DNA of 64,000 bases, taken from positions 7,367-71,366 of the IMG/VR virus record IMGVR_UViG_3300017978_000154. One strand, written 5' to 3'. The first letter of the stretch is position 1; each line of letters opens with the position of its first letter. A program made the translations under genes and the position numbers. This document shows, piece by piece, positions 18,077 to 53,768 of this stretch. The notes under the pieces are model-generated. The model saw only the letters and a program-made list of their open reading frames with translations. It was not told the DNA's origin and did no database searches. This DNA comes from a virus.

Positions 18077-18104
18077 GATAACTCTCAACTAACATATAGG
18101 GTTA

Positions 18105-24523: not shown

Positions 24524-24562
24524 TTAATCCATCAATAATTAGTAACAGTATTATTTAGCGTA

Positions 24563-24964
24563 TTAGCAGTTCCACTTTCTTAAGGCAAGAGCCTTACGAG
24601 TAGGTTCGCCATTTGGTTTCTTCATTGGACCATCTACACCAGACATACGTGCACAGAAAGACTTGCGACGGTTAGCAGCTTTGCTGCCTTTCTTTAGTTT
24701 AGAAGGTGGAGTAGTTACAGGTGCCTTTAGGTTGCTACCGTGTTCGCGATTATAGGCATCGCGACCCTTTTGTGTAAGACCACCAGTTGCAGACTTATGT
24801 CCTTTAGCATCAGCAGTTGCTGCTTCATCCAGTTCGTTTTCTTCTTTAACTGGAACGCAGTTTGGAACTTTCTTACCGTTCTTTTCTTTCATACCGATGG
24901 CTTCATAACCAGTCCAGCATGGATCTTTTTTCTTTTCTTCTAGGTAGTCTTTAAACGAAATCAT
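24563..24964 (-). CDS. Small basic protein with a CTS-like N-terminus (MISFKDYLEE). Candidate internal protein
   Basis: N-terminal similarity to T4 IP capsid-targeting sequences with an L-x-E prohead-protease-type site. Lys/Arg-rich. Confidence 0.4.
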   Translation of the reverse strand: MISFKDYLEEKKKDPCWTGYEAIGMKEKNGKKVPNCVPVKEENELDEAATADAKGHKSATGGLTQKGRDAYNREHGSNLKAPVTTPPSKLKKGSKAANRRKSFCARMSGVDGPMKKPNGEPTRKALALRKWNC

Positions 24965-26739
24965 TTTGCCCCCATATGTTTTCTTAAATCATTATAAAGA
25001 GCAGACTTGTGTAAGTCTTTCATGTGTGTTGGTAAACCAGCGTGGAACTCTTTTTGTTTTCCAGCAGCTGCTAATTCGCGCATCTTAGTACCTGATACTC
25101 CAGCAGTACCCTCAGCGTCTGGGTCACGTTCACCAGATGAGTGAACTGTGATTGACTTGAACTTGTATGCGCCGTGTTTGTGTTCAGAACCGTCGTTATA
25201 CTTATTCAGTAACTTTTCGTATTCTTCTGTACGATCAGAACCAGCCACAACGTGTAAGTGACGAGTACCTTTAGCGTACATGTCAGCAGCATGGTGAAGA
25301 ATAGTTGGCTTCTCTTTAGAAGCAGCTTCAATGTTTGTTCCTGGGAAAGCGTTACGAGCGTGTGTTACTTTAACATCAGCAGGTAAAGGGTTTTTCTTTT
25401 CATCATGACTATGTGATAGCACAACCTTATGGTCACCGTTGTGAGTTTTGGCTACTTCTTTGACTTTGTTGATAACTTGTTCATGACCAACAGTTGGCGG
25501 GTTCATACGACCAAAGGCTAGAACGCCATGCTTCTCATCAGGTTCTTTTGAAGGAGTACGAGCCTTCAATAAGTTTTGACGGGCAAACTCTGCACGGTTG
25601 ACCAACTTAGTAGGTTCTGTAACACCATTATGTGTATGGTTATAAACGAAGCCTTCAGGTTTAGAAGCCTCGCCATTGATAGCGTGTTCGTAAGAACCTT
25701 CGTTAGATTCTAGAGACTTAACAAGTTCGTTCTTGGCAGACTGAAGGTGACCGTGCATCTTCAATAGGTTATCGTAGTGACCTTGGTTCTTCTTGATATG
25801 ATCCAAGTGACCTTTTAGTTCATCCAGTTTAGCGTTCTGAGCTTTTTCAGTCTTTAGCTTAGAAACCATCTTCTCATACTTACCAGCGATGTGAGTCTTC
25901 AAACCTTCAGCGTCTGGCGTAGTACCTTCGCGCACAGTTTGGTTGATGTATGTGGCTAGATGTCCACCGTCACCGTGGTGCATAGATGTAGCTTTGTACA
26001 TCTTTCCCTTATGCTCAGCGTGGATAGCACGAGCAGCGGACATATGTTTGTTGAATGAATCTTGAGACTGCTTAGAGTAGTGAGCACCAGAAGCATCATA
26101 ATCAGCAGTGTGATGGAATACGTCTGGGTGTTGTCCGAAATCACTTCCGGAAACATTATGGTGAGCAGACATGCTGCTTAGTTTATCACCTTCGTATTTG
26201 GTATGAACAACTACACCAATCTTAGACTTCTTAATAGCTTCAGCCTTTTCACCCTTGGCTGTATATGTGATAGTGTTAGGTGTAAACGAAACCTTATCAC
26301 CTTTCTTCTTTAAGTCATCGTGAGTAAACATCAAGTCGCCTTGATATACACCAGACTTTGGAGAAACTTTAGGGAAGTGCTTAAGAGCAGACTTTAGCTT
26401 ATCGGCTAGACCAGGAGCATGTCCGTGGTTAGCATCTACATCTTCTGGAGTGTAGTTAATCTTTGGGTTCTTATTGAACGCTGACTTAGATGCCACAAAG
26501 AACTTACCGTTCTCAGGGTGGTGACCAAACACAACTGATGGAGAACCATCATACTTCATTGTCATCTTATGAGACTGAAGCCCTTGTACAGTGTGATGGT
26601 GCGCAGCTTGAAGAGCACCATAAGCGTGTTCAAAGCCATCTTCTCCGTGTAGAAGTGGACGGTCTTCAGCGTGGTGAATGTGCTTTAGTTTAGCACCTTC
26701 CTCTTCAGCTTCTAATAAGAAATTTAGAAAATTGATCAT
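24961..26739 (-). CDS. His/Lys-rich 592-aa protein with a CTS-like N-terminus and a C-terminal HIGH-motif nucleotidyltransferase domain. Candidate packaged internal protein
   Basis: MINFLNFLLEA N-terminus. FGRMNPPTVGHEQ (HxGH) and VSGTKMRE (ISxTxxR-like) match the cytidylyltransferase/NMNAT-type fold motifs. Confidence 0.5.
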   Translation of the reverse strand: MINFLNFLLEAEEEGAKLKHIHHAEDRPLLHGEDGFEHAYGALQAAHHHTVQGLQSHKMTMKYDGSPSVVFGHHPENGKFFVASKSAFNKNPKINYTPEDVDANHGHAPGLADKLKSALKHFPKVSPKSGVYQGDLMFTHDDLKKKGDKVSFTPNTITYTAKGEKAEAIKKSKIGVVVHTKYEGDKLSSMSAHHNVSGSDFGQHPDVFHHTADYDASGAHYSKQSQDSFNKHMSAARAIHAEHKGKMYKATSMHHGDGGHLATYINQTVREGTTPDAEGLKTHIAGKYEKMVSKLKTEKAQNAKLDELKGHLDHIKKNQGHYDNLLKMHGHLQSAKNELVKSLESNEGSYEHAINGEASKPEGFVYNHTHNGVTEPTKLVNRAEFARQNLLKARTPSKEPDEKHGVLAFGRMNPPTVGHEQVINKVKEVAKTHNGDHKVVLSHSHDEKKNPLPADVKVTHARNAFPGTNIEAASKEKPTILHHAADMYAKGTRHLHVVAGSDRTEEYEKLLNKYNDGSEHKHGAYKFKSITVHSSGERDPDAEGTAGVSGTKMRELAAAGKQKEFHAGLPTHMKDLHKSALYNDLRKHMGAK

Positions 26740-26740
26740 A

Positions 26741-27976
26741 TTAGCTCAATGAGAATGTGCCAGCGACACCTTTGTGTGGACCAGAAGAACCCTTCATGGT
26801 GAAAGAACCAACGTTTGTTACTTTACCAGTCTTCTTATGGACACCTTTGATCACAGTAGAGATACCGCCATTGTGTACAACGTGTAGCTTATCAAAGTTG
26901 GCTAAGTGATCATCCGCAATACTGTGTGATGGAACAACGTGCGATTCAGCATCACCACTATCTTTTACTTTGGAGTGAGCAACGATATGCGGGATATGAG
27001 TTGGTGCGGATACGTGTTGACGAACAATATCACGTAACTCATCATCAGACTTCTTAGCCATACTTTCAGAGAAGTGTTTAGCCATGGCACGTTTAGCGTG
27101 CAGCGCTGATACCTCGGCAGTCGCTGCTCTTGTCTGAGCTTTCTGTTCAAACGCTGCTTGTTCAGTAGGCTTTAATGCGTCATGCGCAGAAATGTATTTT
27201 GCAAGATGTTCGTGTGTGACTTTATTCTTTGAACTTAGGGTCTTACCCTTTGCCAACAAACCTTCAAACTTAGAGTGTTCAGCACGAGCCTTATCAATAC
27301 CCATCTTATCAATTTTGTATTGAATGTGACGTTGAGTCGCTGGACCATTGTAACCAAGTTCTTCCATATGCGCATGGTGGTTGTCGGATAGCTTCTTTAA
27401 AGAACCCTTTTGAAGACCAGCAGTCTTCTCCATAGAATCTAGACCAGGATTGCGATAGTTTGGTTTATGTGAACCATACTTGGCAGATACACCAACGTGA
27501 CCAACAGTCTTACCGTCTTTATCGTGGACACGAACAATAACGTCAGCGTTGGAGTTTACGTCTTTAACACCAGTAGTCTTTTCGTGGTCTCCTGGCTTTC
27601 CTGGCTTATCAGCGTTTGATGTCCAGAATACTCGCCCGATGTGTTGACCTTCACCAACGTGTCCAGCTGACTTCAGGTGAGCGTGAATAGATTTAGCAGT
27701 TTGTTTTGCGTGTTCGTCGATCTGAGAGTATGCAGCGTCACCCATCTTTTTCTTAAGACGATCGTGAACTTGAGTTGGAGTACCAGCGTGGTCTTCGTTT
27801 TCAGACTCTGAGCGGTGATGTTCTGGAAGAGTTGAATCAGGGTGAAGATACTTCGCTAGAAGTAGTTCGTGCATTTTACCCTTGTCGTCGTTTTCAACAT
27901 CTTTAGTATGATTAGCTTCTAGGAGCAACTCTTCTTGAAGAAGCGATTCCTTTAAGAAACTTTTAAAATTTAACAT
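26741..27976 (-). CDS. His/Lys-rich 411-aa protein with a CTS-like N-terminus (MLNFKSFLKESLLQEELLLEA), paralogous in its N-terminus to the 592-aa protein
   Basis: Shared M-[LI]-N-F-x-x-F-L N-termini. Numerous His residues. Confidence 0.45.
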   Translation of the reverse strand: MLNFKSFLKESLLQEELLLEANHTKDVENDDKGKMHELLLAKYLHPDSTLPEHHRSESENEDHAGTPTQVHDRLKKKMGDAAYSQIDEHAKQTAKSIHAHLKSAGHVGEGQHIGRVFWTSNADKPGKPGDHEKTTGVKDVNSNADVIVRVHDKDGKTVGHVGVSAKYGSHKPNYRNPGLDSMEKTAGLQKGSLKKLSDNHHAHMEELGYNGPATQRHIQYKIDKMGIDKARAEHSKFEGLLAKGKTLSSKNKVTHEHLAKYISAHDALKPTEQAAFEQKAQTRAATAEVSALHAKRAMAKHFSESMAKKSDDELRDIVRQHVSAPTHIPHIVAHSKVKDSGDAESHVVPSHSIADDHLANFDKLHVVHNGGISTVIKGVHKKTGKVTNVGSFTMKGSSGPHKGVAGTFSLS

Positions 27977-28012
27977 TAGAATTCCTTTTGATCCATCAAT
28001 ATATCTTTATAT

Positions 28013-29338
28013 TTAGGCTGCGACCAAACCAACTAGTTCGGTCATCATCTTACCCTTTTCAATATAGTGGCGAACATAGTTGTTCTTTGTTTCACCCTTT
28101 AGTCTAACGGTGAATAAGATAGAACCTGTTTTCACGTCTTGAAATCTCACTTCTGGTTTACTTTTATTAGAAACAAAAACTGCTTTTAGTTCTCGGTTCT
28201 TTAGCCTTAGAGCTTGAGCTAAGTTACCAAACTTATAAATCATAGCCTCTTTGTTGCTTAATGATACCATATCCACTGTTGGATCATTTCTGGTTCCAAA
28301 ATACATCAGACCATCAGCAAGGCTCTTGTAAACTGCCTCTTGGTTAGAAGTCATCTTGCGGTTGAACTCAGCAACCATACCTTTGTACACCTCAGTATTT
28401 GCTGCAATTAATCCGTCTGATTTCAGAACCGTGTAATATTTCTTTTCTAGAGCTGGCGAGACTTTTAAATCTAAGAGAGTTTCCCAAAGGTCTTTTTGTT
28501 TATCTAAACCACCACCACCAACTTGGCCAAATTGTTTTGCGCCAGCTGCTTTTAGCGAAACGTTGATATTAACTTTCTTATTATCAATTTCAACGTAAAC
28601 GTCAACCTTGGTGTCATTCTGTGCAACTACACCAATTGCTTTTACTTCTATCCTGTTATATAAGCTGTTTTCATAAACAACTTTTGCGTTTGCAGCAACA
28701 GTAGTTGAGTTGGCGTACTTAACGCTGGAGTTAATAATACTTTTCAAGTTCTTAATATGACGAGGGTTCTTCAACGCTTTAATGTTAATAAGCGCAGAGT
28801 TTACTTCCCAGTACAAATCATCAACAACCTTTGGTTCTTTGTTTGGCGATTTTAATGGACCAATAACCTGTCTTGTGTCAGTATCGTTAAGACGTTTGAT
28901 CATATCCAATACGTCACTATCAATAACAGCTTGGTTCTTATTTAAGAATCGGCAAGCAATAGCTGCGCTAAAGATAATCTCAGCCATATCACCACGGTTG
29001 CTCTTACCACCGAAGTCTTCTGTCTTCATGATATCACTCAGAGGTACTAGAGCAGAAACTTGCCCGTTTCGTTCATACGTTAAGTTGATTTGCTTAAATG
29101 AAACTGAACCTGCTCGAATAACGTTGGCGATGTCAGCAGAGTCTGCCAAGTCAAGTGCGTTCTTAGAAACCAGTTTACCAGTACGTGGGTCTGGATAAGA
29201 GATTCGATTGAATGGTTGTTGTTTACCGTCCGCAGTGGTAAACGGAGATTTTACACCTTCAATCAGTTTTTCAAGCAGGGCAATGATACGTGTTTCGCCG
29301 TGCTTACCTTTAAAATCTTTTACAGCCAGTTTAGCCAT
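28013..29338 (-). CDS. Hypothetical 441-aa protein
   Basis: ORF track. No recognisable motif except a Gly-rich GQVGGGG segment. Confidence 0.4.
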   Translation of the reverse strand: MAKLAVKDFKGKHGETRIIALLEKLIEGVKSPFTTADGKQQPFNRISYPDPRTGKLVSKNALDLADSADIANVIRAGSVSFKQINLTYERNGQVSALVPLSDIMKTEDFGGKSNRGDMAEIIFSAAIACRFLNKNQAVIDSDVLDMIKRLNDTDTRQVIGPLKSPNKEPKVVDDLYWEVNSALINIKALKNPRHIKNLKSIINSSVKYANSTTVAANAKVVYENSLYNRIEVKAIGVVAQNDTKVDVYVEIDNKKVNINVSLKAAGAKQFGQVGGGGLDKQKDLWETLLDLKVSPALEKKYYTVLKSDGLIAANTEVYKGMVAEFNRKMTSNQEAVYKSLADGLMYFGTRNDPTVDMVSLSNKEAMIYKFGNLAQALRLKNRELKAVFVSNKSKPEVRFQDVKTGSILFTVRLKGETKNNYVRHYIEKGKMMTELVGLVAA

Positions 29339-29340
29339 TA

Positions 29341-30048
29341 CTATCCCTTATTGACATACTGACTATTTAGTTTATATTTCCTATCCCACTTAACAATATG
29401 CTGCATTAGTTTTGGTATGGCATAATTGTTTTTAAAATCGTAATCAAAGGTCTTAAGGATATAATGTAGCGTTGAAGAGTCTCGTTTGTTATTGACTCTG
29501 GCCAATAAAGTTTCTAATGAAACGTTTGGTCTGTTCATTTTAAAGTCTAGATAGACACAATGAGCGTATGCTTGTATCTCATCAAACTCAGATAGGTATG
29601 AACGTTCAGCGTCTTTTAGAGAGTGTCCAACCTTCTTGTGCGGTAGGACATAATTACTGTACTCGTCATTGCGACGATCGTACTGCATGAAGTGGATCAT
29701 CTCATGCATTAAGGTTTGTATGACACGGTACTTGAATTTGTTCCAAGTCTTGACTTCAAATTTATGTTTATCGAAGTCAAAAGAATATATCTGGATACAA
29801 CATTGACGGTCATCTGGAGAATACTCGCCACCGACAGCAACGTATTTTGACCACGATTTCTTCAGAGGTTGTCTGAACTCTACTTTAGTTCTCCACTTCT
29901 TAAAGTAGTTGGAGAGACCGACGGAGTTATTTTCATACTCGTCTAGGTCTCTCCATATTTTTGATGGGTTGAGTTTAGCTCGGAATGGACGCTCAGTGAA
30001 GTTGAGCATTTCCATCCAGTCAAAGTTAGATTGTTCTAGGAAATTCAT
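29341..30048 (-). CDS. Putative zinc metallopeptidase-like protein (HExxH)
   Basis: TLMHEMIHFMQY contains HEMIH. N-terminus MNFLEQ resembles the neighbouring CTS-like N-termini. Confidence 0.35.
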   Translation of the reverse strand: MNFLEQSNFDWMEMLNFTERPFRAKLNPSKIWRDLDEYENNSVGLSNYFKKWRTKVEFRQPLKKSWSKYVAVGGEYSPDDRQCCIQIYSFDFDKHKFEVKTWNKFKYRVIQTLMHEMIHFMQYDRRNDEYSNYVLPHKKVGHSLKDAERSYLSEFDEIQAYAHCVYLDFKMNRPNVSLETLLARVNNKRDSSTLHYILKTFDYDFKNNYAIPKLMQHIVKWDRKYKLNSQYVNKG

Positions 30049-30072: not shown

Positions 30073-30678
30073 TTACCCTAATTGTCCTTCTAGGAAGGCT
30101 AAGACTTTCGCTTGTTCCTCTAAGTTAGTATTTGCAAACTCAGTAATATAAGGCATCAAGTCAAAATTTGATAACAGGTTACTATATTTAGTTTCGCGAC
30201 CTCTTAGGAATTGCTCGGACTGATCAGAACCACGATCTTTATATCGCTGTTCGAGAACTGTCTTAGGTGCGTTCAGGAATACGATATGAAGCTCGGTATC
30301 TGGGAGACCCATGGCGAACTCTAGGAAAGACTGATTGAAGATACGGTCACCTTCAAATAGAACGTTACAGTTATGGGAAGCGATCCACTCCTGCATGGCT
30401 GGCTGAACTGCCATAGAAAGACGGTCGGTTCCAGCGAACACTTCGCCTTCTTCATACTTACCAAGGATGTATAGATCACGCTCAGTATTATACATGGCTG
30501 AAACTAGCTTGGCTGGTTCAACTGGTTGGAATACTTTACTTTCCATATACTTACGGAACAACGTGGTCTTGCCAGTTCCTGGGCTACCACCAACAGCAAT
30601 AAGTTTTCTCACTTTTTTCTCCGCTCTAATAAGTTGAATGGTGACTTCATCATTCGCTTTAATTTTATCAATGAACAT
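30073..30678 (-). CDS. P-loop kinase (candidate nucleic-acid/nucleotide kinase; candidate 5-hydroxymethylpyrimidine DNA kinase by context)
   Basis: Walker A AVGGSPGTGKTT. About 200 aa. Sits in an operon with the modification-type genes. Confidence 0.55.
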   Translation of the reverse strand: MFIDKIKANDEVTIQLIRAEKKVRKLIAVGGSPGTGKTTLFRKYMESKVFQPVEPAKLVSAMYNTERDLYILGKYEEGEVFAGTDRLSMAVQPAMQEWIASHNCNVLFEGDRIFNQSFLEFAMGLPDTELHIVFLNAPKTVLEQRYKDRGSDQSEQFLRGRETKYSNLLSNFDLMPYITEFANTNLEEQAKVLAFLEGQLG

Positions 30679-31105
30679 TATTCAGTAACTCTTTCAATTC
30701 TTCATCAGTGAATACCCAAACACGACCGATGAAGTGATGAACGTCAGCATCCTTATCGTGTTTCTTTTTGAACATAACCTTCTTGGCAATATCACGTGCT
30801 AAGTTCTTGGCGATGTTCTCTTTAATCTCAGAGGCATAATCAGGGGCAACCTCTTGTAGCTTCAATAGCTCTTGAGCAGTTACTTTATGATCAACAGCGA
30901 TACGGTTGAGGCTATGCTCATCCATAATCTCATCCACTGTGCGTGTAATCTTTGGGAGAGGTGTAGCAGCAGTCATAGCATTATGAGCCGACCAACTACT
31001 AATACCAATTGGTGCAAGACCGCTATTTGTTACAACAGAATAATTGCCGTCGCTTAATGTAAGACTTCCTTGCATCACATCATTTAATACGTCATCTGGG
31101 TTCAT
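30668..31105 (-). CDS. Hypothetical protein
   Basis: ORF track. Overlap-coupled to both neighbours. Confidence 0.35.
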   Translation of the reverse strand: MNPDDVLNDVMQGSLTLSDGNYSVVTNSGLAPIGISSWSAHNAMTAATPLPKITRTVDEIMDEHSLNRIAVDHKVTAQELLKLQEVAPDYASEIKENIAKNLARDIAKKVMFKKKHDKDADVHHFIGRVWVFTDEELKELLNNVH

Positions 31106-32121
31106 GTAAACATCTCCAATCCCATTAAGGGTTTTTCTTCATCTTCAAACATCCATTCTAAGTTATCTATTTTACCTGAGTTCAGGAAGAAAGTAAACTT
31201 TTCTTTATTGATGCCATTCTTGTGGTCTAGTCGCAAGTCGATTGTTTCATTTCGAGATTGCCACATAACATTCCAATCAATACCATACCATCCATCACCT
31301 TCAGCTTTGATAATCTCTTCAGCTTGACGGTCAAGGTAATATCCAAGATAGCGACCGTGCTTTGCTCTAAAGATTTTCTTGAAAGAACACAGACAGGTTT
31401 CCATAGTAAAGAAGTCAATTTGATTTGCTAGTTCAGGAAACCTGTCTAGCATTTCAACCCTGATTCCCTCGCCAAATGCTTCAAGGTCTCCATACTCGCT
31501 TCCAGTGAGTTTTCGATCAACATCGTTATCACGCCCAGCGGCAAAAAGTAATCCATTACGATGAGAACGGGAACCATCATAATCATCCAACATAAGAGAA
31601 CTAGGCTCAATGTTAATACCAGCAGTGTGCTTAAGATGCTGCATATAGAACCAAGTAGAATAACGACCAAACTTATGAAGCCTTGACTTAAGAACGCTCC
31701 ACAGAGCATCAAAGTTTTCTTTAGCATCACCGACGTAGTACGATTCGAGTGTTTCACGTTGAGTCTTCTTTCCAATAAAATTTTGATACGATTCAAACAT
31801 TGCTGGAAGATGACCCTTGTTCCATTTCGTATCAGTCTGGTAACGGAGTCGTTTGTAGTTGGTTGTATTCCATTGAGTGATACGATCTACCGTGGCAAGT
31901 TCGTAGTCAGGGAATTCGTTCTTAAGAACCCAAGCAGTTGGCAGTTGATATGTGTTACCATACAACCAAGCGAACCAAATACGTTCTTCGTCATTATGTT
32001 CATAACGTTTATGAAGATAGTTTGTAGCCCAAACCGCTGGGTCACAGTCATCATATTTCATTGACCATGCGTACCAGCGGATGAAGGCTTCTCTTCTGTT
32101 TTCTTTATTTCGATAATCCAT
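31102..32121 (-). CDS. Uncharacterised W/Y-rich 339-aa protein; candidate base-modifying transferase (aGPT-Pplase-like) by context only
   Basis: No catalytic motif recognised by eye. Placed between the P-loop kinase and the ParB-like gene in the same operon. Confidence 0.3.
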   Translation of the reverse strand: MDYRNKENRREAFIRWYAWSMKYDDCDPAVWATNYLHKRYEHNDEERIWFAWLYGNTYQLPTAWVLKNEFPDYELATVDRITQWNTTNYKRLRYQTDTKWNKGHLPAMFESYQNFIGKKTQRETLESYYVGDAKENFDALWSVLKSRLHKFGRYSTWFYMQHLKHTAGINIEPSSLMLDDYDGSRSHRNGLLFAAGRDNDVDRKLTGSEYGDLEAFGEGIRVEMLDRFPELANQIDFFTMETCLCSFKKIFRAKHGRYLGYYLDRQAEEIIKAEGDGWYGIDWNVMWQSRNETIDLRLDHKNGINKEKFTFFLNSGKIDNLEWMFEDEEKPLMGLEMFT

Positions 32122-33460
32122 CTCGTGTCACAATGTTGTGATTAAATGGGTGCGCAAAGAAGATGTTAATCTTACTTTTAACACCGTGTGTTAAAATATT
32201 ATCCAGCTTTTTAAGGACACTGTCAGCTTCTGTCAAATAACCAACGATACTCTTAAAGTGAATAATTATATTCGCTTCGTTCTTACCACCTTTAACGAAG
32301 TTCTCAACCGCATAAGCAATAGCACCACCAATACCACCGTTATTCACCCCATCAAGAGATTGGTAAATAACAGGCAGACCATTATTATGTGTAGATTGTT
32401 GCCAGTAACGAGCAAGAGTAGCAGTGCTGTAATCAATGAAGTTTTGTTCATTCTTTGAACGAGCAAGGGCTTCAGCGGTTGCTTCAGCTAACTGGTCGCA
32501 TTTACGAATGACGTCAGAGTTAAGCCACATACCACCCTTCTTAGTACCTTTACCACCAAGATCTTCTTTGGCGATTGCTTTGAAACCAACGCTGTCGAAA
32601 CTGTGTGATGGGTAACGTGCTTGAAGTTCGCGAAGACGCATCACCAAGTCATCAAGTGTATTACCAGTGCGTTCAGCTTCGACATGGTTCATCAAGTTGC
32701 CAAAGATATTGAAGTTATACGCATCATTATCAAAGTGAGAGTAATCAACTTTGATAACAGGGAATGTATCCCAACCAGCAACAGAAGCAGCATTGACACG
32801 ATGGTTACCATCAAGCAACATAATGATACGACCGTTGGCGTCAACTAAAACAATAACTGGGGTGATATGCTTTCTAGCAAATCCTGGCGTTTTAAACGCA
32901 GTAATCAGAGAAGAAAGTTTGTCTTGTTTTAACTTGAATGCACGTGCTTGGTTGTGGTTGGTTATGTATAGCGTATGTACAGATTCTTCTGTTACAGGGA
33001 ATTCTTCAGTACCACCTTCTTTCCATTTTTCAATGGCTTCAGTAACCTTTCCCCACAGTTCAATCAGTTCAGGTGTTTTGGTTTTCTTCTCGAGGATAAG
33101 GTCGCTTGGGTCAAACCACTCACCAGTTTCAACCCACTTTGTAACATTGTCAACATGTTCTTTTACTGGACGGAATGATCGAACGACGCCTGGTCCGCCA
33201 CCATTAGTTTTATTATAGAACTGTTTAGAATTCTTTGCGTCAAACAAACTCAAAAAGAAATACTCTTGGTTGTACATTTCTTCTTTTGTGCCGTGCGCAA
33301 GAATAACACGCTCAATTAGGTCTTGGTGGATGGCTTCTTTGAGGAACCGATTAGTCGAGGATGTAATGTAGTTATCAACGGTCACATCTCCGTTGTGCAC
33401 ACCAATATACTTTTCTTTGGTGTTTACATTAGTCAAGCCGTACAAAATCCAAGTAGACAT
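32105..33460 (-). CDS. ParB/Srx-like domain protein with a GIY-YIG-like N-terminal motif
   Basis: VLVDANGRIIMLLDGNHRVNAA is the ParB N-terminal-domain DGxHR signature. ILYGLTNVNTKEKYIG is a GIY-(n)-YIG-like N-terminus. Confidence 0.45.
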   Translation of the reverse strand: MSTWILYGLTNVNTKEKYIGVHNGDVTVDNYITSSTNRFLKEAIHQDLIERVILAHGTKEEMYNQEYFFLSLFDAKNSKQFYNKTNGGGPGVVRSFRPVKEHVDNVTKWVETGEWFDPSDLILEKKTKTPELIELWGKVTEAIEKWKEGGTEEFPVTEESVHTLYITNHNQARAFKLKQDKLSSLITAFKTPGFARKHITPVIVLVDANGRIIMLLDGNHRVNAASVAGWDTFPVIKVDYSHFDNDAYNFNIFGNLMNHVEAERTGNTLDDLVMRLRELQARYPSHSFDSVGFKAIAKEDLGGKGTKKGGMWLNSDVIRKCDQLAEATAEALARSKNEQNFIDYSTATLARYWQQSTHNNGLPVIYQSLDGVNNGGIGGAIAYAVENFVKGGKNEANIIIHFKSIVGYLTEADSVLKKLDNILTHGVKSKINIFFAHPFNHNIVTRDGLSK

Positions 33461-33487
33461 AATAAATCCTTTTCAAGTTATAGATAT

Positions 33488-33516
33488 ATTATACTATATT
33501 CTTGAATAAAAGTAAA
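33488..33516 (-). promoter_or_regulatory. Sigma70-type promoter TTTACT-N17-TATAAT (minus strand)
   Basis: Reverse complement of attata at 33488-33493 and of agtaaa at 33511-33516. Confidence 0.5.
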
Positions 33517-33521
33517 TACCC

Positions 33522-34073
33522 TCAAAACCCTTCTAGAGTCAGGGGTTTCTGGGCTTCAGCGAGGTCAAACACCTCTACGCAGCCACCTTTACCCTTTTTA
33601 TGGATGGCTCCGTTGATCATCTGGTCTGTATAGTCGTAGTCTCCCTCAAAGAAGGTATCACCATCAATTCTAAAAATACTCAGCTGACAACCAGACTTTT
33701 GTTTACCCCAGAACTTGAAACCAATCTTCTCATAGAAGCCAACTGATTCTGGTTCTGACGATACACGGAAGTACAACGCTTGTTTACTTTTAACATGACG
33801 AAGTGATGCTTCACATAATGCTTTGGCTGCTCCCTGACCCCTGTGTTTAGCAAAGGTATGAAGCAGTTGTAGATTAGCAACGAAAGGTTTACGCTTAGAG
33901 ATAGTGGTAATGATAGCAGCCATCAGTTCACCTTCTTCGTTGAAGGCACCGATACAATCATCCCACTGTTCCTGCATGTCTGCTTTGGCCACGAAAGTCT
34001 TAGCAAACTTGTCAGCCTTATCATCAGAGATAGCTTTTATGAATTGGTCACGAGTACACTTATTCAACTTCAA
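33522..34073 (-). CDS. GNAT family N-acetyltransferase
   Basis: HRGQGAAKAL matches the (R/Q)xxGxG/A acetyl-CoA binding motif in a typical about 180-aa fold. Confidence 0.65.
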   Translation of the reverse strand: MKLNKCTRDQFIKAISDDKADKFAKTFVAKADMQEQWDDCIGAFNEEGELMAAIITTISKRKPFVANLQLLHTFAKHRGQGAAKALCEASLRHVKSKQALYFRVSSEPESVGFYEKIGFKFWGKQKSGCQLSIFRIDGDTFFEGDYDYTDQMINGAIHKKGKGGCVEVFDLAEAQKPLTLEGF

Positions 34074-34932
34074 CGTATGTTCTCACTTTCTTACCACGTT
34101 CTTCTGGGTGTTTAGTCTTTTCCCAACCGATGAACTGAGCCAAGTCCCATTGCATTGGTGGGAACTTATAACCACGTTCAGAGATAAGCTCATTGACACT
34201 TGGACCATCATTCAATGCAGCATCAAGGAAGTCTTCAACAAAACGGAAGCATGATTCTAGTTCAGTACGATCTAACGTGCCACGGAACAATCGAAACTCT
34301 ACCGTGTCAATATGCTTCAACGCATACATGTTAATAGCGAAACGGAATGGACGACCCATTGATACACCATCTTTACCTGCGGCGTGCATCTTGATAAAAG
34401 AATCAAAGTCAGTTGCTAGGTTGATAATGTTATCGCTCATGTAGTCAGGCATTGGGCGACCACCATCAAACTTCAGATACATCTTAGAACCTTTGGCACC
34501 CTTCATCTGGTTGTGCTCAAAGAAGCCATATACATGTTCAATGGCTGCAGCTTGGTTCTCTTTGATGTATTTTGTTAGACGCTTCAGTGCATCAATATCA
34601 TCACGAAGACCTGGGACACGGCAATGAATATGGGTATGAGCAGTAACACCAACAGTTGGGTCGTGACCTTGTTCATTGAATAAATCTTTCAGTTCAAAAT
34701 AACGATCAACTTGGTCTTGCCAAGTTCTAGTTGGCTTGGTGTTAATCTCACCACCCATCGGCGGTTCAACACCCAACGGATCGGCGCACACGTTTGCGTA
34801 TGGTGCACGAAGGTTGATAATGTCACGCTCAGAGTATTCCCAAGAACCTAGTTGTTCCGGAATTGAAAAAGAGCGGGGAACATCTCCCCACTCTATCTCC
34901 ATGCCATATGTAAAATCACTTTTGTTGTACAT
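34060..34932 (-). CDS. Glutamine-synthetase-like amidoligase (putative amidoligase family)
   Basis: EIEWGD, HTHIH and FRLFRGTLD conserved-residue pattern of GS/GCS2-type amidoligases. Start placed at MYNKSDF (AAGGA RBS); track start at 34962. Confidence 0.45.
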   Translation of the reverse strand: MYNKSDFTYGMEIEWGDVPRSFSIPEQLGSWEYSERDIINLRAPYANVCADPLGVEPPMGGEINTKPTRTWQDQVDRYFELKDLFNEQGHDPTVGVTAHTHIHCRVPGLRDDIDALKRLTKYIKENQAAAIEHVYGFFEHNQMKGAKGSKMYLKFDGGRPMPDYMSDNIINLATDFDSFIKMHAAGKDGVSMGRPFRFAINMYALKHIDTVEFRLFRGTLDRTELESCFRFVEDFLDAALNDGPSVNELISERGYKFPPMQWDLAQFIGWEKTKHPEERGKKVRTYVEVE

Positions 34933-35623
34933 TCTGTAAATCCTTGTTTCCTGTTTTAACAAGTTGCATTCTCATAGTTAGACCAGAGTCAAACGTAATA
35001 TATGTGTCCATTGGAATTTCCATGTTTGGAAAATACAAATTAGCACGTTTGGCAATATCTGCTGTAGAGGTAATTATACTACCATTCGATAGAGTAGTCA
35101 AATATAATGGACGCTTACCATTGCGATAAACAGTCAACTCTTTAGGAGAAGCCGTGAGAGTACAAACTGCCATGGACATATTGTTGAACTCATCAAGAGG
35201 ATCGTTTGAATGCAGGACTAACTCAGAATCATTCTTTGTTGCGCAGTCATAACCATACAACTCTTTCCAGTGTTCTGGAAGCTCTTGAGTGATAACACCA
35301 TTGTGGACAATTGATTTGTCTGCATTGGCCATAGGTTGGTTATATTCCAAATCAGATGTCGAGTAACGACAGTGACCGATCAGATATAAGTTACCATCCT
35401 TGTTAATGAACTCTTTGAAGTTGTCGTTATGCATATGCTTCTCAACGAACTGATCCGCTGGGATAGCTTCCTTAATTGTAACAATATCATCAGTCCACTT
35501 TGGTAAGAATGACATACCTGTTGCGTGCATACCACGAATCTTAGACTCGACGAACACACGCTTCAGGGCTTCAAAATCCTTCAGAGAAGGATTCTTAATA
35601 ACTGCTCCAATTACGGCACACAT
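34916..35623 (-). CDS. Class-II (Ntn) glutamine amidotransferase domain protein
   Basis: MCAVIG: Cys directly after the initiator Met is the hallmark of GATase type 2 N-terminal nucleophile enzymes (PurF/GlmS/AsnB type). Confidence 0.6.
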   Translation of the reverse strand: MCAVIGAVIKNPSLKDFEALKRVFVESKIRGMHATGMSFLPKWTDDIVTIKEAIPADQFVEKHMHNDNFKEFINKDGNLYLIGHCRYSTSDLEYNQPMANADKSIVHNGVITQELPEHWKELYGYDCATKNDSELVLHSNDPLDEFNNMSMAVCTLTASPKELTVYRNGKRPLYLTTLSNGSIITSTADIAKRANLYFPNMEIPMDTYITFDSGLTMRMQLVKTGNKDLQNVQQK

Positions 35624-36996
35624 TAGGAAAAGAACTCATCTAGTGAAGAAGCATTAGATTCTGGATGCATCTTCAAGGTTTCTGCTTCGCCAACTTCTTT
35701 CTTACAGAAGTCATACCACTCTTGGCTTTCCCACATTCCAGCGTACACACCGTTAAAGCGTGGGCGATAATGAGGGTTGTTAACATCGTTCTTGCAGTGA
35801 TCAACGAACTTACGACGAGCATTTTCATACTCCATAGAACCAAGAGTCAACATACCTTCGTGGAAGAATGCAATGATAGAGATACGTTCAGCATTAGGGT
35901 CATCCAGAATCAATTCAGTATTACCATGCAGACCAGCCATGTTATTAACGAACAGTAAATCACCTGGACGAATGTTAACAGCATAACCAATCTCGGGGAA
36001 TACCAAGTAAGCACCTCTATAATTATCAGAGTTACTAAACACGCAGATATTAGCGAAACCATCATCCATATTTGCGGGGTCATAGTGGGCTGCAGTTCTG
36101 AAGTTACGGTTTACAGTAATTGTACTGAATGGAGTATTTGGGACCAAGAAGCGTGGATCAATCTTATCCGCAGCAGCTTTCTGGTTACCATAACGCCATG
36201 GCAACAATTCCTCAAACGCTTTAGACAAGTGTTGGAGATATGGATAAGACTTCTTGAACTTATCGAATTGCTTCTCAGTGTAAGAAGTTGCACGACCATA
36301 AGGGATACGTGGATAACGATCGTACCAACCAGCAATACCAGAGTTCACTGGGTTTGCATATGTAGTCTTGGAGATTAGGTTATCTTCAACCCAAGCTGCA
36401 TCGGCTGAAGCGTCAGCTGCAGGTTTACGGCGAGTTGTTTCAACCCAGTCATCAAATTGGAACCCAGCATCTGCAACCGAATCGCGAAGCCATACTTGAG
36501 CACGGTTAGACGCTTGGTCACGACCTTCGGCATATTTAGTTTGGATAGCTTCAATCGGGTCTTCACCCAACAAGTTACCAGCACCCTTCTTAAAGGCTTC
36601 AATGATATCCCATTGATACGCTGTAACCCAGTCGCGACCTTGTAGCTTCTCACCACGTGGACCAGCAGCAGTACCACGGTTCTGAGTTTCAGTAGCTGCG
36701 TCACGAAGACCTTCGTAAGCAGACTTTGTCATTTCATCACTGAAGTAGTTCTTACGGAACTTGAAAACAATCTTACGTTCATCAAGTGCCTTGGAGCAAC
36801 CACTACACGCCTTTTCACAATTTGGGTCAGACAGGTCAGTTGCACAAGAAGCAGGAAGGTACAAGTCCATGTCAGACTCAACCAATGTATGGTAATGGCG
36901 TTCATCAAGCCAAGTACCAACTAGGTCTGGACGAGGAACAACCTCAGGGGCTTCCAATACAACAACTTTCACATTTCTACCAGCATCAACACTCAT
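35623..36996 (-). CDS. 2-oxoglutarate/Fe(II)-dependent dioxygenase-like protein with an N-terminal Cys-cluster domain. Candidate nucleic-acid base hydroxylase
   Basis: AAHYDPANMDDG ... GLHGNTEL ... RISIIAFF gives an HxD...H...RxS double-stranded beta-helix pattern. N-terminal CATDLSDPNCEKACSGCSK. Confidence 0.5.
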   Translation of the reverse strand: MSVDAGRNVKVVVLEAPEVVPRPDLVGTWLDERHYHTLVESDMDLYLPASCATDLSDPNCEKACSGCSKALDERKIVFKFRKNYFSDEMTKSAYEGLRDAATETQNRGTAAGPRGEKLQGRDWVTAYQWDIIEAFKKGAGNLLGEDPIEAIQTKYAEGRDQASNRAQVWLRDSVADAGFQFDDWVETTRRKPAADASADAAWVEDNLISKTTYANPVNSGIAGWYDRYPRIPYGRATSYTEKQFDKFKKSYPYLQHLSKAFEELLPWRYGNQKAAADKIDPRFLVPNTPFSTITVNRNFRTAAHYDPANMDDGFANICVFSNSDNYRGAYLVFPEIGYAVNIRPGDLLFVNNMAGLHGNTELILDDPNAERISIIAFFHEGMLTLGSMEYENARRKFVDHCKNDVNNPHYRPRFNGVYAGMWESQEWYDFCKKEVGEAETLKMHPESNASSLDEFFS

Positions 36997-37007: not shown

Positions 37008-38402
37008 TTAAAACTTAAATCCGCTAAAATTCTCAGACTGCATTCTGGAACCAAAACCACTCTTATCAAATAATGGTTTGTCATCTTTGACGTGTCCAGC
37101 GTCAGCCAAGCCTTCTTGGGCAGATGCTTCAACATCATATAATTTCATCTTACTTCTATCAATACCAACCACAAATCGTTTATAGTAATTTGGGTCGTTG
37201 TAACGGTTCTTCAACTGCTTGACGATAATCTGATTCAGGTTTTCTAGTTCTTCACTTGAAACCAAAGCAAACATAAAGTCAGCTGTCGCAGGTAGACCGA
37301 ACGATTCAGAAGTATCTTCAAGTCCTGGGTCTGAACTACCATATCCAGAACGGGTAGTTTGTGTGGCTGAAACAATGGGTACATTATATTCAACCGCTAG
37401 ACCACGAAGCTCTTCAGCAATCGCTTTCACAAACGTATATGAATTAACATTCGCACCAGCTTTCATCCTCTGAGAGGAACAAATATTTAGATAATCTATA
37501 AACACGATATCTGGAACAAATTCACGTTTGAGTTTAAGTTCTTCTAGCAATGCACGGAAGTGACCAGCATGAGCAGAAGCAGTTGGATATTCTTTGACGA
37601 TTAGTTTACCCTGTGTCTTTTTCTTCAGTTTATCAATGCGTGATTCAAAGATGTCTTTGTCGACAACCTTCAATTCATCCATAGTCAAGTTCAAAAGGTT
37701 TGCGTCAATACGTTCAGCGATACGTTCTTCTGACATTTCCATAGTAATGTAGAGAACGTTACGACCTGCAGTTAGTGCGCCAGCTGCAACGTGACACATA
37801 AACAAGGACTTACCAACACCAGTACCAGCCAGTGCGATGTTCAAAGTCTTACGGCTCAGACCACCCTTGGTAATCTTGTTGAACATATCCAAGTCGAATG
37901 GAATCTTCTCTTCAATGCGATGATAAAAGTCATAGCGATGAGCGAAGTCATCCAAGTAGTCGTGACCCACATGGCTGTCAAAAGATACAGCAAGTGCGTC
38001 AGATAATAGGTGAGGGATTGCGTCTTGTCCATGCGTGGGATCTTTACCCTCAAAGATCTTAATGGAGTTCATGATAGCCAAATAAACGGCTCGGTCTTTA
38101 CAGAACTTCTCAGTGCTTGTAAGTAACCAGTCTTCGTTTACGGGTGCCTTGACCAAAGTCTTGATGTACTCGCCAATGTCGCCAACTTCTTTGTCGGTAA
38201 CACCTTTTGCGTTTGAAACTTCAATCGCTAGAATTTCAGGTGTTAGGGATTTATTGTATTTGTTAAAGAAGTCGATGATCTCAGTGATGATCACCGATTC
38301 TTTACGATCGGAAAAATACTCACGCTTTAGGAATGGAATGACCTTACGACAATAGTGCTCATCATGAATCAAATTACTCAGAATTTGTTGTTCGATTCTC
38401 AT
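37008..38402 (-). CDS. Replicative DNA helicase (T4 gp41-like, DnaB family)
   Basis: N-terminus MRIEQQILSNLIHDEHYCRKVIPFL aligns with T4 gp41 MVEIILSHLIFDQAYFSKVWPYM. Walker A GTGVGKS. Confidence 0.85.
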   Translation of the reverse strand: MRIEQQILSNLIHDEHYCRKVIPFLKREYFSDRKESVIITEIIDFFNKYNKSLTPEILAIEVSNAKGVTDKEVGDIGEYIKTLVKAPVNEDWLLTSTEKFCKDRAVYLAIMNSIKIFEGKDPTHGQDAIPHLLSDALAVSFDSHVGHDYLDDFAHRYDFYHRIEEKIPFDLDMFNKITKGGLSRKTLNIALAGTGVGKSLFMCHVAAGALTAGRNVLYITMEMSEERIAERIDANLLNLTMDELKVVDKDIFESRIDKLKKKTQGKLIVKEYPTASAHAGHFRALLEELKLKREFVPDIVFIDYLNICSSQRMKAGANVNSYTFVKAIAEELRGLAVEYNVPIVSATQTTRSGYGSSDPGLEDTSESFGLPATADFMFALVSSEELENLNQIIVKQLKNRYNDPNYYKRFVVGIDRSKMKLYDVEASAQEGLADAGHVKDDKPLFDKSGFGSRMQSENFSGFKF

Positions 38403-40013: not shown

Positions 40014-42500
40014 TTATCCGAAGAAGTCTTCAAGGGATGCTGTTTCTTCAGCACGCCAGTTCAACGGTTCAATAATTGTTTTTAATGGTTCTACAAATGT
40101 CTTGTCAAATTGTGTGTCGTAGTCTATGAAAGAATCCAGCTTAAACTCTTTAGGGAGTTCTTGCAGGAAGGCGATGACGTTTTCGTGGAATGGGTTTGGA
40201 GTTCTTAGATAAACGAATTTAATCTTATCACCCTCACGAATCAATGGATATTTCTTGTCGATGCCAAATTTCTTAACGTAGTGATTATATAGTAGTGCTG
40301 CACGGACAGCAATCGGGCAACCCTTCTGATAGATCGGAGAACCAGCATACTGCTTCAAACCTGACACGCCACGAGGGAATGCGATAGCTTCAACAGGGTA
40401 TGTCAAGAACTCGTTCTTGTAATCAGCGATATACTTCTGTACAACCTTTTCACTGCCATCTAGAATAACGTTGATGGACTTCTTCAGTTCTTTACGAATA
40501 ACGGCTGGTGTCGAAGAACGAACCATCGCTAAACCAAGAACCTTTTGCTTTGGAGTTGCATACTGAACACCTTCAGAGTTATGCACGTTAAGCACATAGT
40601 TCTTCTTTGCAACCCAAAGACCTTTGTCAGCCAAAACTTCACGCTTCATAATCATCTTCTGAGAATATGCGTTCATGTACTCGGCAAGTTTCTGATAAGT
40701 TGTATCAATGAACGGTTGGAAGATATCTTCGCAAATCTTGTCCATGTACTTGATCTTACCATTTGTATCTTTATCACCAGCAAAGTGCTCAACCAATTCT
40801 TCCAATGTCAGATAGATTGAGTCAGTATCAATAGCGATAACAAAGTCTTTACCTTCGGTCTTTAGGATCTTGTTCAGGTATCGGTTGAACTCGTTGGCCA
40901 TCCATTGAATGGACAACTGTCCAGAAGTTGTAATACCCTCAGCCATACGAATATCGAAATAGCGGAAGTACTGGTTACCCATAGCACCGTAAGCAGAGTT
41001 CAAAGCAATCTTCATAGCCATCTGAAGGTTATTCAGTCGGCTGATTTCTTTGCGCAGGTCGTTATTACCTTTGTCGTGTTCATACTTTTGTTGAACACCA
41101 AGCATCTGCTTTTTGAACTTTGAACGGTTAGCATACATCTGTTCCATCAACTCAGGCATAAACCCTTTGATGTCTTTACGATAGCACCAACCATTTGCAG
41201 TTACGGTCAAATCACGTTTGTGTGCGTGTGATGTGTCAATCTCTTGATTGAGTAGTTTGTCAACAGTAACAGAGATCTTTTCATGAGTCAAAGTCTCAGG
41301 GGAGATATTGTACTGCATGATCAAGTGAGGATACAATGAGTTCAAGTCAAAAGAAACAACCCACTTATGTAAACCAACCTGTACGTCTTTAACGAAAGCA
41401 CCTTCAAACTGTTCAGACTTACCGCTGTGTTCTTTCATTGGGATAACAATGTTCTTCTTACGAAGGTGATTGTAGATGATAGCATCCCACATACGAACTT
41501 GCGAGTAGACGTCTTCGTAGTTAATTTTGGCTTGGTAAGCCATGGTCAAGTGAAGTTCGATTAGACGCATCTTATCTTCAAGACGGTCAACCAGTTCTAC
41601 GTCATGAATGTTATACTCAACGAACTGTTGCCAGTGGTTTGTATAGAAGTCACGGAAAGTATCACCAGGATTCTCTTTCTTCTTGTCGCCTAGTTCCTGC
41701 TCTGCAATGTAATCCAATCGGTAGGATTCTTGCTTGGAGTAAGTATACTTTTTGTACAACTCGAGATAGTCAAGCTGACTAATACCAGAAACATCATAGT
41801 GGATTTCTTCATTGCCTTTGATGAACGTTTTGCGTTCAGTAATCATACCCCATGGAGAGATCTTCTTGGCGAGTGCTTCGCCAAGTTCACGAATCATTCG
41901 ACGAATCAAATAAGGTGTGTCGAAGAAGTCGGTGTTCCAACCAGTAATAACGTCAGGGTAGTTTTGTTGCCACCAGATGATGAACTCTTTGAGCAAGTGT
42001 TGCTCTGAAGCGCAGTTGATGTAAACTACATCGTCACGATCATGAACGAAAGCACCAACACCGAAAGTGATGATGCGCTTTGATGTCAGGTCTTTGACCG
42101 TGATCAAGAGGATTTCTTCGTTAGCTGTGACAATGTTCGGGAAGCCTTCTTCAGTCTTGGTTTCGATGTCAATCGTAAAGACTTTGAGTTGTTCCATATC
42201 CCAGTTGATATCATAGTCGTATGTATCACTGATGTATTGCAGACCGTAGTTAGTCTGACCATAGACGTTGAAGCCTTGCACTCCATCGTAACGCTTCATG
42301 AAGTCGCGAGACTCACGAATGCTCCCTGGTTGCACTTCATCAACGTAAGTGCCATCCAAGGTTTGCCATTTAGATTTACCCTTTGCATTAACAAAAAGGG
42401 TTGGCATAAAATCAATGCGTCGCTGGTAAGGTCGTCCGTTTTCGTAACCACGAACTAAAACCTTATCACCAGCGACTTGTACGTTTGTATAAAATTCCAT
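40014..42500 (-). CDS. DNA polymerase, family B (T4 gp43-like)
   Basis: MEFYTNV N-terminus (T4: MKEFYISIE). Exo and pol motifs (DIETK.., YGAMG, DTDS). Start placed at the ATG overlapping the dexA stop (TAATG). Confidence 0.9.
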   Translation of the reverse strand: MEFYTNVQVAGDKVLVRGYENGRPYQRRIDFMPTLFVNAKGKSKWQTLDGTYVDEVQPGSIRESRDFMKRYDGVQGFNVYGQTNYGLQYISDTYDYDINWDMEQLKVFTIDIETKTEEGFPNIVTANEEILLITVKDLTSKRIITFGVGAFVHDRDDVVYINCASEQHLLKEFIIWWQQNYPDVITGWNTDFFDTPYLIRRMIRELGEALAKKISPWGMITERKTFIKGNEEIHYDVSGISQLDYLELYKKYTYSKQESYRLDYIAEQELGDKKKENPGDTFRDFYTNHWQQFVEYNIHDVELVDRLEDKMRLIELHLTMAYQAKINYEDVYSQVRMWDAIIYNHLRKKNIVIPMKEHSGKSEQFEGAFVKDVQVGLHKWVVSFDLNSLYPHLIMQYNISPETLTHEKISVTVDKLLNQEIDTSHAHKRDLTVTANGWCYRKDIKGFMPELMEQMYANRSKFKKQMLGVQQKYEHDKGNNDLRKEISRLNNLQMAMKIALNSAYGAMGNQYFRYFDIRMAEGITTSGQLSIQWMANEFNRYLNKILKTEGKDFVIAIDTDSIYLTLEELVEHFAGDKDTNGKIKYMDKICEDIFQPFIDTTYQKLAEYMNAYSQKMIMKREVLADKGLWVAKKNYVLNVHNSEGVQYATPKQKVLGLAMVRSSTPAVIRKELKKSINVILDGSEKVVQKYIADYKNEFLTYPVEAIAFPRGVSGLKQYAGSPIYQKGCPIAVRAALLYNHYVKKFGIDKKYPLIREGDKIKFVYLRTPNPFHENVIAFLQELPKEFKLDSFIDYDTQFDKTFVEPLKTIIEPLNWRAEETASLEDFFG

Positions 42501-44840: not shown

Positions 44841-44841
44841 T

Positions 44842-52562: not shown

Positions 52563-52577
52563 TATATAATTTCCTGA

Positions 52578-53146: not shown

Positions 53147-53219
53147 AAATGTCCTCCATAATATACCATCATGACGAAAGAACCGTGTAGGCGATGGTGT
53201 TACCTACACGGTGTGTGAA

Positions 53220-53741: not shown

Positions 53742-53768
53742 GAAAGGGGAATTTCACCCCATACATTA

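Follow-up and report, generated by a model that had tools for sequence, protein, structure and literature searches.

The locus studied here raises the question of what a phage makes with a row of enzyme genes lodged directly beside its replicative helicase gene. It lies in 64,000 nucleotides of viral DNA (positions 7,367 to 71,366 of IMG/VR virus record IMGVR_UViG_3300017978_000154), a stretch which we call the window and to which all coordinates refer unless a locus is named. An earlier note, made from the sequence of the window alone, had picked out seven minus-strand genes at 30073-36996 and read them as a candidate DNA base hypermodification cassette. The profile searches which that note had proposed favour its reading, as the matches to the TET_JBP, PF18751 kinase and PF18724 transferase families all exceed their cut-offs. 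We consider it highly probable that the cassette is a post-replicative thymidine hypermodification operon, of the type which passes from 5-hydroxymethyluracil (5hmU) through a phosphate to an amino adduct, held at a fixed site after gp41 in an abundant uncultured clade of T4-like phages.

Predicted enzymes of the cassette and their target base

The gene next to gp41 (35623-36996; all genes of the cassette lie on the minus strand) encodes a 457-aa protein, which the earlier note had called 2-oxoglutarate (2OG)-Fe(II)-oxygenase-like. It matched Pfam Tet_JBP over residues 236-380 with 81.6 bits (cut-off 34.9; 5e-23) and phrog_24024 along its full length (4.8e-144), and its H304-x-D306, H357 and R371 are invariant across 15 homologues. 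Ahead of this domain lie ~235 conserved N-terminal residues, and the protein is extended at its C-terminus. The protein is predicted to be a TET/JBP-family Fe(II)/2OG 5-methylpyrimidine dioxygenase (5mYOX); its best cultured relatives belong to Caulobacter phage Cr30 and Stenotrophomonas phage DLP6, with 41-43% identity. The 201-aa product of 30073-30678, a P-loop kinase in the earlier note, scored 37.4 bits with Ploopntkinase3 (PF18751; cut-off 27; 2.5e-9) and has a Walker A motif, G31-x-P-G-T-G-K37-T38, conserved across 67 homologues; it is a predicted member of the 5-hydroxymethyldeoxyuridine (5hmdU) DNA kinase (5-HMUDK) family. Between these two lies the gene of a W/Y-rich protein (31102-32121; 339 aa), whose existence the note had recorded correctly but which it had left as uncharacterised. 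A match to Pfam ADDT, PF18724 (77.3 bits, cut-off 26.2; 1.8e-21) identifies it as a predicted amino acid:DNA transferase (AADT), a family formerly known as clade 2 of the aGPT-Pplases, and tblastn with this protein matched 379 phage records, ViI-like Ackermannviridae among them, at ~27% identity.

The window also encodes a flavin-dependent thymidylate synthase, ThyX (16383-17063, minus strand; Pfam Thy1, 2.3e-43), so that ordinary dTMP is made and the phage relies on flavin-dependent dTMP synthesis. The thyX gene shares 16 nt with the end of the primase gene, gp61, and is followed by nrdA and nrdB. No Pfam match to a C5-methyltransferase or a ThyA-like enzyme was noticed among the 60 window open reading frames (ORFs) scanned, and a crude motif check revealed neither a PCQxFS nor a ThyA-type motif in 1869 ORFs of the window and the 86 loci fetched for comparison. 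The presence of ThyX and the negative search for a C5-methyltransferase or ThyA-like enzyme fit the oxidation of thymine in finished DNA, which has been proposed for metavirome contigs carrying TET_JBP (Lee et al., NAR 2021, PMC8989533). With the HxD/H/R residues of its TET_JBP protein intact, and with ThyX instead of a ThyA-like enzyme, the cassette fits the TET variant of the metaviromes and not the classical one. Were the dioxygenase to act on 5-methylcytosine (5mC) in the manner of TET, the cassette would hypermodify cytosine, a reading which we regard as very improbable. It is true that 5mC dioxygenases exist among TET_JBP enzymes, and that the phage enzymes tested in vitro by O'Toole et al. 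(PNAS 2026, PMC13229309) can oxidise 5mC as well. However, no C5-methyltransferase was detected in the window or the 86 fetched loci, it is solely on 5hmdU that members of the kinase and AADT families have been characterised (PMC8989533), and T-dioxygenase activity was shown for phage 5mYOXs which have no C5-methyltransferase as a neighbour (PMC13229309).

Three further enzymes are encoded between the dioxygenase and the AADT. The 235-aa protein with the N-terminus MCAVIG (34916-35623), taken in the earlier note for a class-II glutamine amidotransferase, matched GATase_6 with 41.6 bits (cut-off 27; 1.5e-10) and GATase_7 with an E-value of 2.6e-6. Its Cys2, R86, N108-G109 and D132 are at least 97% conserved among 60 homologues; we take these to be the class-II glutamine-binding and catalytic positions, presumably corresponding to C1, R73, N98-G99 and D123 of GlmS. 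The protein is a lone glutaminase domain and has no fused synthase (ammonia-acceptor) domain, so that the acceptor must be a separate protein; we predict it to be a true stand-alone class-II (Ntn) glutaminase. The adjoining gene (34060-34932; 290 aa) was read from the ATG at 34932, which public gene callers choose over a TTG at 34962 that would give 300 aa (34060-34962). Its product, the amidoligase resembling GS in the note, had a single Pfam match, to Amidoligase_2 (PF12224), at 15.5 bits and thus under the cut-off of 22. Of the 19 members of the family to which the window protein belongs, 16 matched Amidoligase_2, and the window protein aligns over 269 aa at 30% identity (E = 1e-22) with one from a related locus (L016:2677-3678; L numbers denote fetched loci) which scores 34.5 bits and has the motifs GxExE, GGEINTxPT, HxHI and EFRxF in common with it. 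Through this transitive link the assignment is upheld weakly: a divergent Amidoligase_2-like (GS/GCS2-type) carboxylate-amine ligase appears right but weak as a description. A profile search with the amidoligase family found no solved relative, and single-sequence searches of PDB returned nothing useful for the amidoligase, ParB, HExxH, AADT, GATase or TET proteins. The third enzyme (33522-34073; 183 aa) matched Acetyltransf_10 with 47.8 bits (1.8e-12) and Acetyltransf_1 with 5.7e-8, and is predicted to be a GNAT acyltransferase, in line with the note.

All seven ORFs of the earlier note are present, and it had missed an eighth in the same interval, orf145 (30668-31105; 145 aa), a conserved small ORF which had no Pfam or PHROG match and which by tblastn found matches in 71 related loci at a median identity of 50%. 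The extent given in the note was also too short, as it omitted the gene of a 235-aa HExxH (zincin-like) protein at 29341-30048. This gene stands 3' of the kinase gene in 56 of 56 related loci (co-occurrence counts refer throughout to related loci with sequence long enough to tell) and so is probably an additional member of the conserved unit; the AlphaFold2 (AF2) model of the protein is confident, and no informative structural neighbour of the model was found. Overlaps of 1-47 nt join adjacent genes of the cassette, and the coupling described in the note thus held at all junctions but one, a 61-nt gap (33461-33521) ahead of the ParB-like gene (32105-33460; 451 aa), which is the only real gap within the cassette. 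The note had further placed the cassette between gp41 and gp61. It does adjoin the gene of the gp41-type replicative helicase (37008-38402, minus strand; phrog_19, 7.4e-132), which forms its upstream anchor, but gp61 primase is encoded at 17048-18088, so that the gp41-gp61 interval amounts to ~19 kb and the cassette is only its gp41-proximal 7-8 kb. The remainder of the interval is taken up by DUF6267/cytidylyltransferase-like proteins, DUF6321, a ferritin-like protein and unknowns.

Invariant core, variable slot and the proposed route

Is this set of genes an accident of one genome? Relatives of the AADT confirmed by tblastn in IMG/VR number at least 421, the best 80 of 421 being 75-99% identical, and 83 of the 86 fetched loci are relatives of this clade. 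A DNA search of the phage collection with the cassette gave no match by megablast or by blastn with word size 11, which leaves the cassette without a close cultured relative, and gp43 is at most 55% identical to that of any deposited phage, the nearest being cyanophages of the Kyanoviridae type. On these comparisons the source phage is placed as a member of an abundant uncultured T4-like clade. Throughout the clade the order gp41-TET-GATase-[slot]-AADT-(orf145)-kinase-HExxH is fixed, and besides the HExxH gene, the kinase was found in 47 of 47 informative loci, TET and GATase in 36 of 36 each and gp41 in 22 of 22. The cassette is thus confirmed not to be a chance arrangement, and its core of TET, GATase, AADT, kinase and HExxH protein is invariant. 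The dioxygenase is the fastest-evolving of the conserved genes, with a median identity to the window of 49% against 78% for gp41 and AADT, and the dioxygenases of the clade form at least six sequence clusters which largely follow the tailoring type; diversifying selection on sequence specificity and gene replacement are both possibilities here.

The slot between GATase and AADT, on the other hand, varies, and its contents were counted in 60 loci. The commonest type, in 36 of these, is a lone GNAT-like gene of ~220 aa, accompanied in one locus by an added small 2OG oxygenase gene. Amidoligase and GNAT together, as in the window, fill the slot in 21 loci: alone in 7, with the ParB-like gene in 8, with a 192-aa ORF in 3, with an HNH gene in 2 and with small 2OG oxygenases in 1; GNAT accompanies the window-type amidoligase wherever the latter occurs. 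In the third type (3 loci) the slot holds a GT1-like glycosyltransferase, an Amidoligase_2 protein and a low-molecular-weight (LMW) phosphatase with no GNAT, which brings amidoligases to 24 of the 60 loci. This set is seen at L016:1584-4094 (weak GT1 match; Amidoligase_2, 34.5 bits; LMW phosphotyrosine-phosphatase-like, 5.9e-17) and also in L006 and L010, in L006 beside a dioxygenase 95% identical to that of the window. Other insertions lie elsewhere in the cassette. A radical S-adenosylmethionine (SAM) protein of 476-498 aa (CxxxCxxC; Pfam 1.1e-13) is encoded between AADT and kinase at L045:11020-12450 and L072:11017-12513, and also in L039, a sign that the adduct of these phages may undergo carbon-centred tailoring. 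Small oxygenases of the 2OG-FeII_Oxy_5 family (168-198 aa) occur at differing points (L025:8061-8657; L054:8038-8544 and 9438-10001), in some relatives between TET and GATase. Taken together, the GATase-AADT slot appears to hold swappable tailoring enzymes.

The route which these genes would serve starts with dTTP derived from ThyX activity and incorporated normally. The TET/JBP dioxygenase would then convert thymine in the DNA to 5hmU, as homologues have been shown to do, and the PF18751 kinase would phosphorylate the hydroxymethyl group to give 5-phosphomethyluracil, as in phages M6, ViI and PaMx11. Subsequently, the AADT would displace the phosphate with a nitrogen or oxygen nucleophile, and the genes of the variable slot, here an ATP-dependent amidoligase and a GNAT, would tailor the adduct. 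The acceptor of the glutaminase should itself be a core protein, since the glutaminase is invariant, keeps its glutamine-binding residues, has no synthase domain and is present in loci without amidoligase. We therefore offer, as a tentative proposal to which we give rather low credence, that the glutaminase feeds ammonia to the kinase/AADT step, after the kinase-activate-then-aminate logic of amidotransferases, and so yields 5-aminomethyl-dU by a route other than that of PaMx11. In relatives with a GNAT only, this base would be acylated to N-acyl-aminomethyl-dU; in the window phage, the amidoligase would extend it by an amide bond before acylation by the GNAT, giving a longer, N-acylated and amide-linked side chain which would match no known base. 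The same proposal takes the GATase-AADT slot for a natural swap site of tailoring enzymes and of a mobile GIY-YIG-ParB module.

It is also conceivable, though in our view unlikely, that glutaminase, amidoligase and GNAT act on a protein, a peptide or a small molecule and are mere neighbours of a simpler TET-kinase-AADT pathway. The Pfam description of Amidoligase_2 and Iyer et al. in 2009 are said to predict peptide or protein modification for neighbourhoods of an amidoligase with a GAT-II-like protein, and pairs of Amidoligase_2 and GAT-II carried by other mobile elements have been credited with such a role. In the present cassette, however, the three genes sit between dioxygenase and AADT and are translationally coupled by overlaps, and the glutaminase keeps company with AADT in all 36 loci, those lacking amidoligase included. 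The slot is, moreover, exchanged for enzymes of the base-tailoring type (lone GNAT, glycosyltransferase with phosphatase, 2OG oxygenases, radical SAM), and PaMx11 offers a precedent for a GNAT which acetylates a DNA base (PMC8989533).

Several points weigh against thymidine hypermodification as such or against the ammonia transfer proposed above. Characterised AADTs take Gly, Ser or putrescine, not ammonia (PMC8989533), and the radical-SAM genes of some relatives recall the glycine-adduct route of M6, which would favour an amino-acid adduct over ammonia. The AADT could alternatively add an amino acid whose carboxylate is then amidated by amidoligase and glutaminase together; the radical-SAM genes speak for this alternative as well, but it leaves the glutaminase partnerless in most of the clade. 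The amidoligase itself is a weak element, with its score below the Pfam cut-off and no solved relative. The substrate of this dioxygenase clade is assigned by analogy, and some members of clade C1 without ParB gave no detectable activity in earlier assays (O'Toole et al., PMC13229309). Our search for methyltransferase and dUMP hydroxymethylase covered 64 kb of a genome of ~170 kb, and such an enzyme may lie elsewhere. Finally, the pathway is read from the genes of an uncultured phage of which there is no isolate.

The GIY-YIG-ParB gene

Does the ParB-like gene belong to the pathway? Its 451-aa product, which contains the DGNHR motif pointed out in the earlier note, consists of three parts. The ParB/Srx NTP-binding domain (PF02195 fold; Q171-x-R173, G218-N-H-R221), as anticipated in the note, is central, and is followed by a C-terminal alpha/beta domain and preceded by an additional GIY-YIG-like domain, which does not conserve the Arg present in nearly all GIY-YIG nucleases. 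The gene occurs in 8 of the 60 loci (~13%), only within this cassette and always directly upstream of AADT. Its alleles align end to end in the one three-domain architecture and all retain the NTP-binding residues (QxR, GxxR), yet their identity is only 19-28%. When the window was compared with relatives whose flanks are 85-98% identical, DNA identity ended at the ParB start codon and returned at the AADT start codon. The locus L084, for instance, is 98% identical to the window in TET, 100% in GATase, 100% in amidoligase, 99% in GNAT and 98% in AADT, but 26% in ParB. Between L066 and L084 the reverse was observed, with 93% identity in ParB against 48% in TET, 65% in GATase, 83% in amidoligase, 66% in GNAT and 78% in AADT, and at the nucleotide level the pair goes from 55-73% identity within the GNAT gene up to 83-93% within ParB. 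As allele identity is uncoupled from the backbone, the gene is exchanged horizontally as a unit, much as T4-like phages exchange their free-standing homing-endonuclease genes. Dioxygenases at least 95% identical to that of the window are found in loci without ParB, namely L017, with amidoligase and GNAT, and L006, with the glycosyltransferase set, where the comparison concerns the loci and not the rest of those genomes. We conclude that in this clade the ParB gene behaves as a facultative, horizontally swapped accessory. On account of the uncoupled alleles, the notion of a strict cognate partner of the dioxygenase was rejected for this clade, and with it the earlier note's view of a ParB-like partner as a fixed component.

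Hence it has to be asked whether the gene is a pathway component at all. It may instead be a free-standing selfish gene of the homing-endonuclease kind, or encode a nuclease against unmodified host or competitor DNA, which has lodged in the GNAT/AADT junction; we consider this a real possibility and give it slightly less than even weight. The sporadic distribution of the gene, its sharp borders, the uncoupled alleles with nucleotide identity higher inside the gene than in the flanks, and the near-identical dioxygenases which do without it all agree with such an origin, as does the variety at the same junction, which elsewhere holds an HNH gene (2 loci), an unrelated 192-aa ORF (3 loci) or nothing (7 loci). 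The gene is also preceded by the cassette's only intergenic gap, where we noticed a Shine-Dalgarno-like site and a sigma-70-like match, TTTACT-17-TATAAT (33516-33488), which alone is not significant (25 consensus matches observed against 21.8 expected). On the other hand, all alleles keep the same architecture and position and are restricted to the cassette, their NTP-binding residues persist in spite of their low identity, and the nuclease Arg is not conserved. Furthermore, ParB homologues beside clusters of TET, GATase, kinase and AADT activate T-dioxygenases on duplex DNA in experiments (PMC13229309), and by analogy the GIY-YIG-ParB protein may help the dioxygenase of the cassette to act on duplex DNA.

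The homing endonucleases of the GIY-YIG type in T4-like phages (Seg, and the catalytic domain of I-TevI) resemble the ParB gene in an apparently common fold and in sporadic occurrence, sharp borders, promoter-like element and horizontal spread. They differ in that the ParB protein is without the conserved catalytic Arg, carries the ParB nucleotide-binding domain (NBD) and an unassigned domain at its C-terminal side instead of the Seg DNA-binding module, and has every allele in the same cassette. The window itself offers an internal contrast to the GIY-YIG-like domain in a genuine SegE-type homing endonuclease (12339-12764, minus strand; Pfam SegE_GIY-YIG, 2.3e-32), encoded ~630 nt downstream of nrdB (13394-14374). 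The main text of a 2025 survey of ParB-fold fusions makes no mention of a fusion with GIY-YIG.

Precedents, neighbouring genes and meaning

The earlier note had held that the combination matches no characterised pathway, but precedents exist in two papers. Lee et al. (2021, PMC8989533), who reconstituted the functions of 5-HMUDK and AADT for M6, ViI and PaMx11, also described contigs from IMG/VR and GOV (sequences 22-25) with 5-HMUDK, aGPT-Pplase2, amidoligase, glutaminotransferase and a TET_JBP protein which replaces the dUMP hydroxymethylase. These metavirome clusters are like the present cassette in all of these genes and in coming from IMG/VR; unlike here, they were assigned neither a product nor a role for amidoligase or glutaminase, and the paper is without the post-gp41 position, the HExxH partner and the swappable slot described above. 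O'Toole et al. (2026, PMC13229309) demonstrated that phage 5mYOXs of clades C1 and C2 are T-dioxygenases. They described a ParB-dependent subclass as "consistently linked" to GATases, to P-loop kinases and to AADTs, and relied for this on the Pfam models which also gave the present matches; according to them, ParB homologues in such clusters had already been illustrated by Iyer et al. 2013. Our cassette is similar to clade C1 in having no neighbouring C5-methyltransferase, in the C-terminal extension of the dioxygenase, in a co-located NTP-binding ParB/Srx protein and in the linkage to GATase, PF18751 and PF18724. It is dissimilar in that the window dioxygenase bears an N-terminal extension of ~235 aa, against enzymes of ~290-300 aa in that study. 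The ParB proteins of clade C1 have an N-terminal NBD and a C-terminal dimerisation domain and none besides, whereas in the window protein the ParB domain is central, behind the GIY-YIG-like domain; the window gene also stands four genes away from the dioxygenase, is present in ~13% of the clade and has alleles which do not track the dioxygenase.

With the cultured phages M6, ViI, PaMx11 and PhiW-14 (Lee et al. 2018/2021) the cassette has in common the logic of kinase followed by AADT, and the final GNAT recalls PaMx11 gp48, which gives 5-acetylaminomethyl-dU. However, in these phages 5hmdU arises ahead of replication through a ThyA-like dUMP hydroxymethylase, tailoring is by a pyridoxal phosphate (PLP) decarboxylase, a radical-SAM isomerase or a flavin adenine dinucleotide (FAD) lyase, and none of them uses a glutaminase or an amidoligase. 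The gene combination is therefore already published at the level of neighbourhoods, while the location after gp41 in a large T4-like clade, the HExxH partner, the swappable slot and the GIY-YIG-ParB gene with its uncoupled allele exchange are added here.

A cultured T4-like phage with a related dioxygenase is Caulobacter phage Cr30 (L001; KF301602.1, 49383-70636). Its enzyme, 43% identical to that of the window, is annotated as 'SNF2 DNA repair protein' and has in its neighbourhood a strong AADT (179 bits), a weak TET-associated-glycosyltransferase-like protein, a myo-inositol-1-phosphate synthase, a protein with a dATP/dGTP diphosphohydrolase domain and a kinase-like protein. In the window, the genes directly 3' of the HExxH gene (26741-29338, minus strand) encode proteins of 441 aa (phrog_3560) and 411 aa (no match); they are variably present or replaced among relatives and make up a second variable zone, downstream of the cassette. 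Beyond them (22421-26739, minus strand) lie genes for a 700-aa and a 592-aa protein with common cytidylyltransferase-like PHROG matches, the latter with DUF6267, and a small DUF6321 protein between them, all parts which are duplicated and rearranged in related loci. On the other side of the cassette, between gp43 and the clamp-loader genes (42500-46303, minus strand), there are an Rv2179c-like 3'-5' exoribonuclease, an AAA_33 P-loop kinase (156 aa) with no obvious link to the cassette and an ATP-dependent DNA ligase. A second GNAT is encoded at 47124-47687 and an Hsp20 at 47719-48201, and an SPFH/Band-7 protein (447 aa), an AAA_5 ATPase (384 aa) and an unannotated 711-aa protein come in a row at 51219-57184 (minus strand). 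An NAD+ salvage pair at 3372-5832 (minus strand), consisting of NAMPT (NAPRTase + NAMPT_N, 466 aa) and a bifunctional cytidylyltransferase-like/NUDIX protein (334 aa), represents auxiliary metabolic genes of a sort known from some large T4-like phages.

If the proposed reading is true, widespread uncultured T4-like phages would protect or mark their DNA with an undescribed thymine derivative. A stand-alone glutaminase and a ligase of the Amidoligase_2 type, which have had no assigned role in DNA modification, would make it. The natural syntenic variants (GNAT only; amidoligase with GNAT; glycosyltransferase with amidoligase and phosphatase; any of them combined or not with radical SAM, small 2OG oxygenases and ParB) provide a comparison set for assigning the tailoring enzymes, and Cr30 is a tractable relative whose DNA may bear an uncharacterised thymine modification. 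The uncoupled ParB alleles, in turn, bear on the question raised by the work of 2026, whether a ParB-like protein serves its cognate T-dioxygenase as a dedicated activator or is an interchangeable module, and possibly a selfish one.

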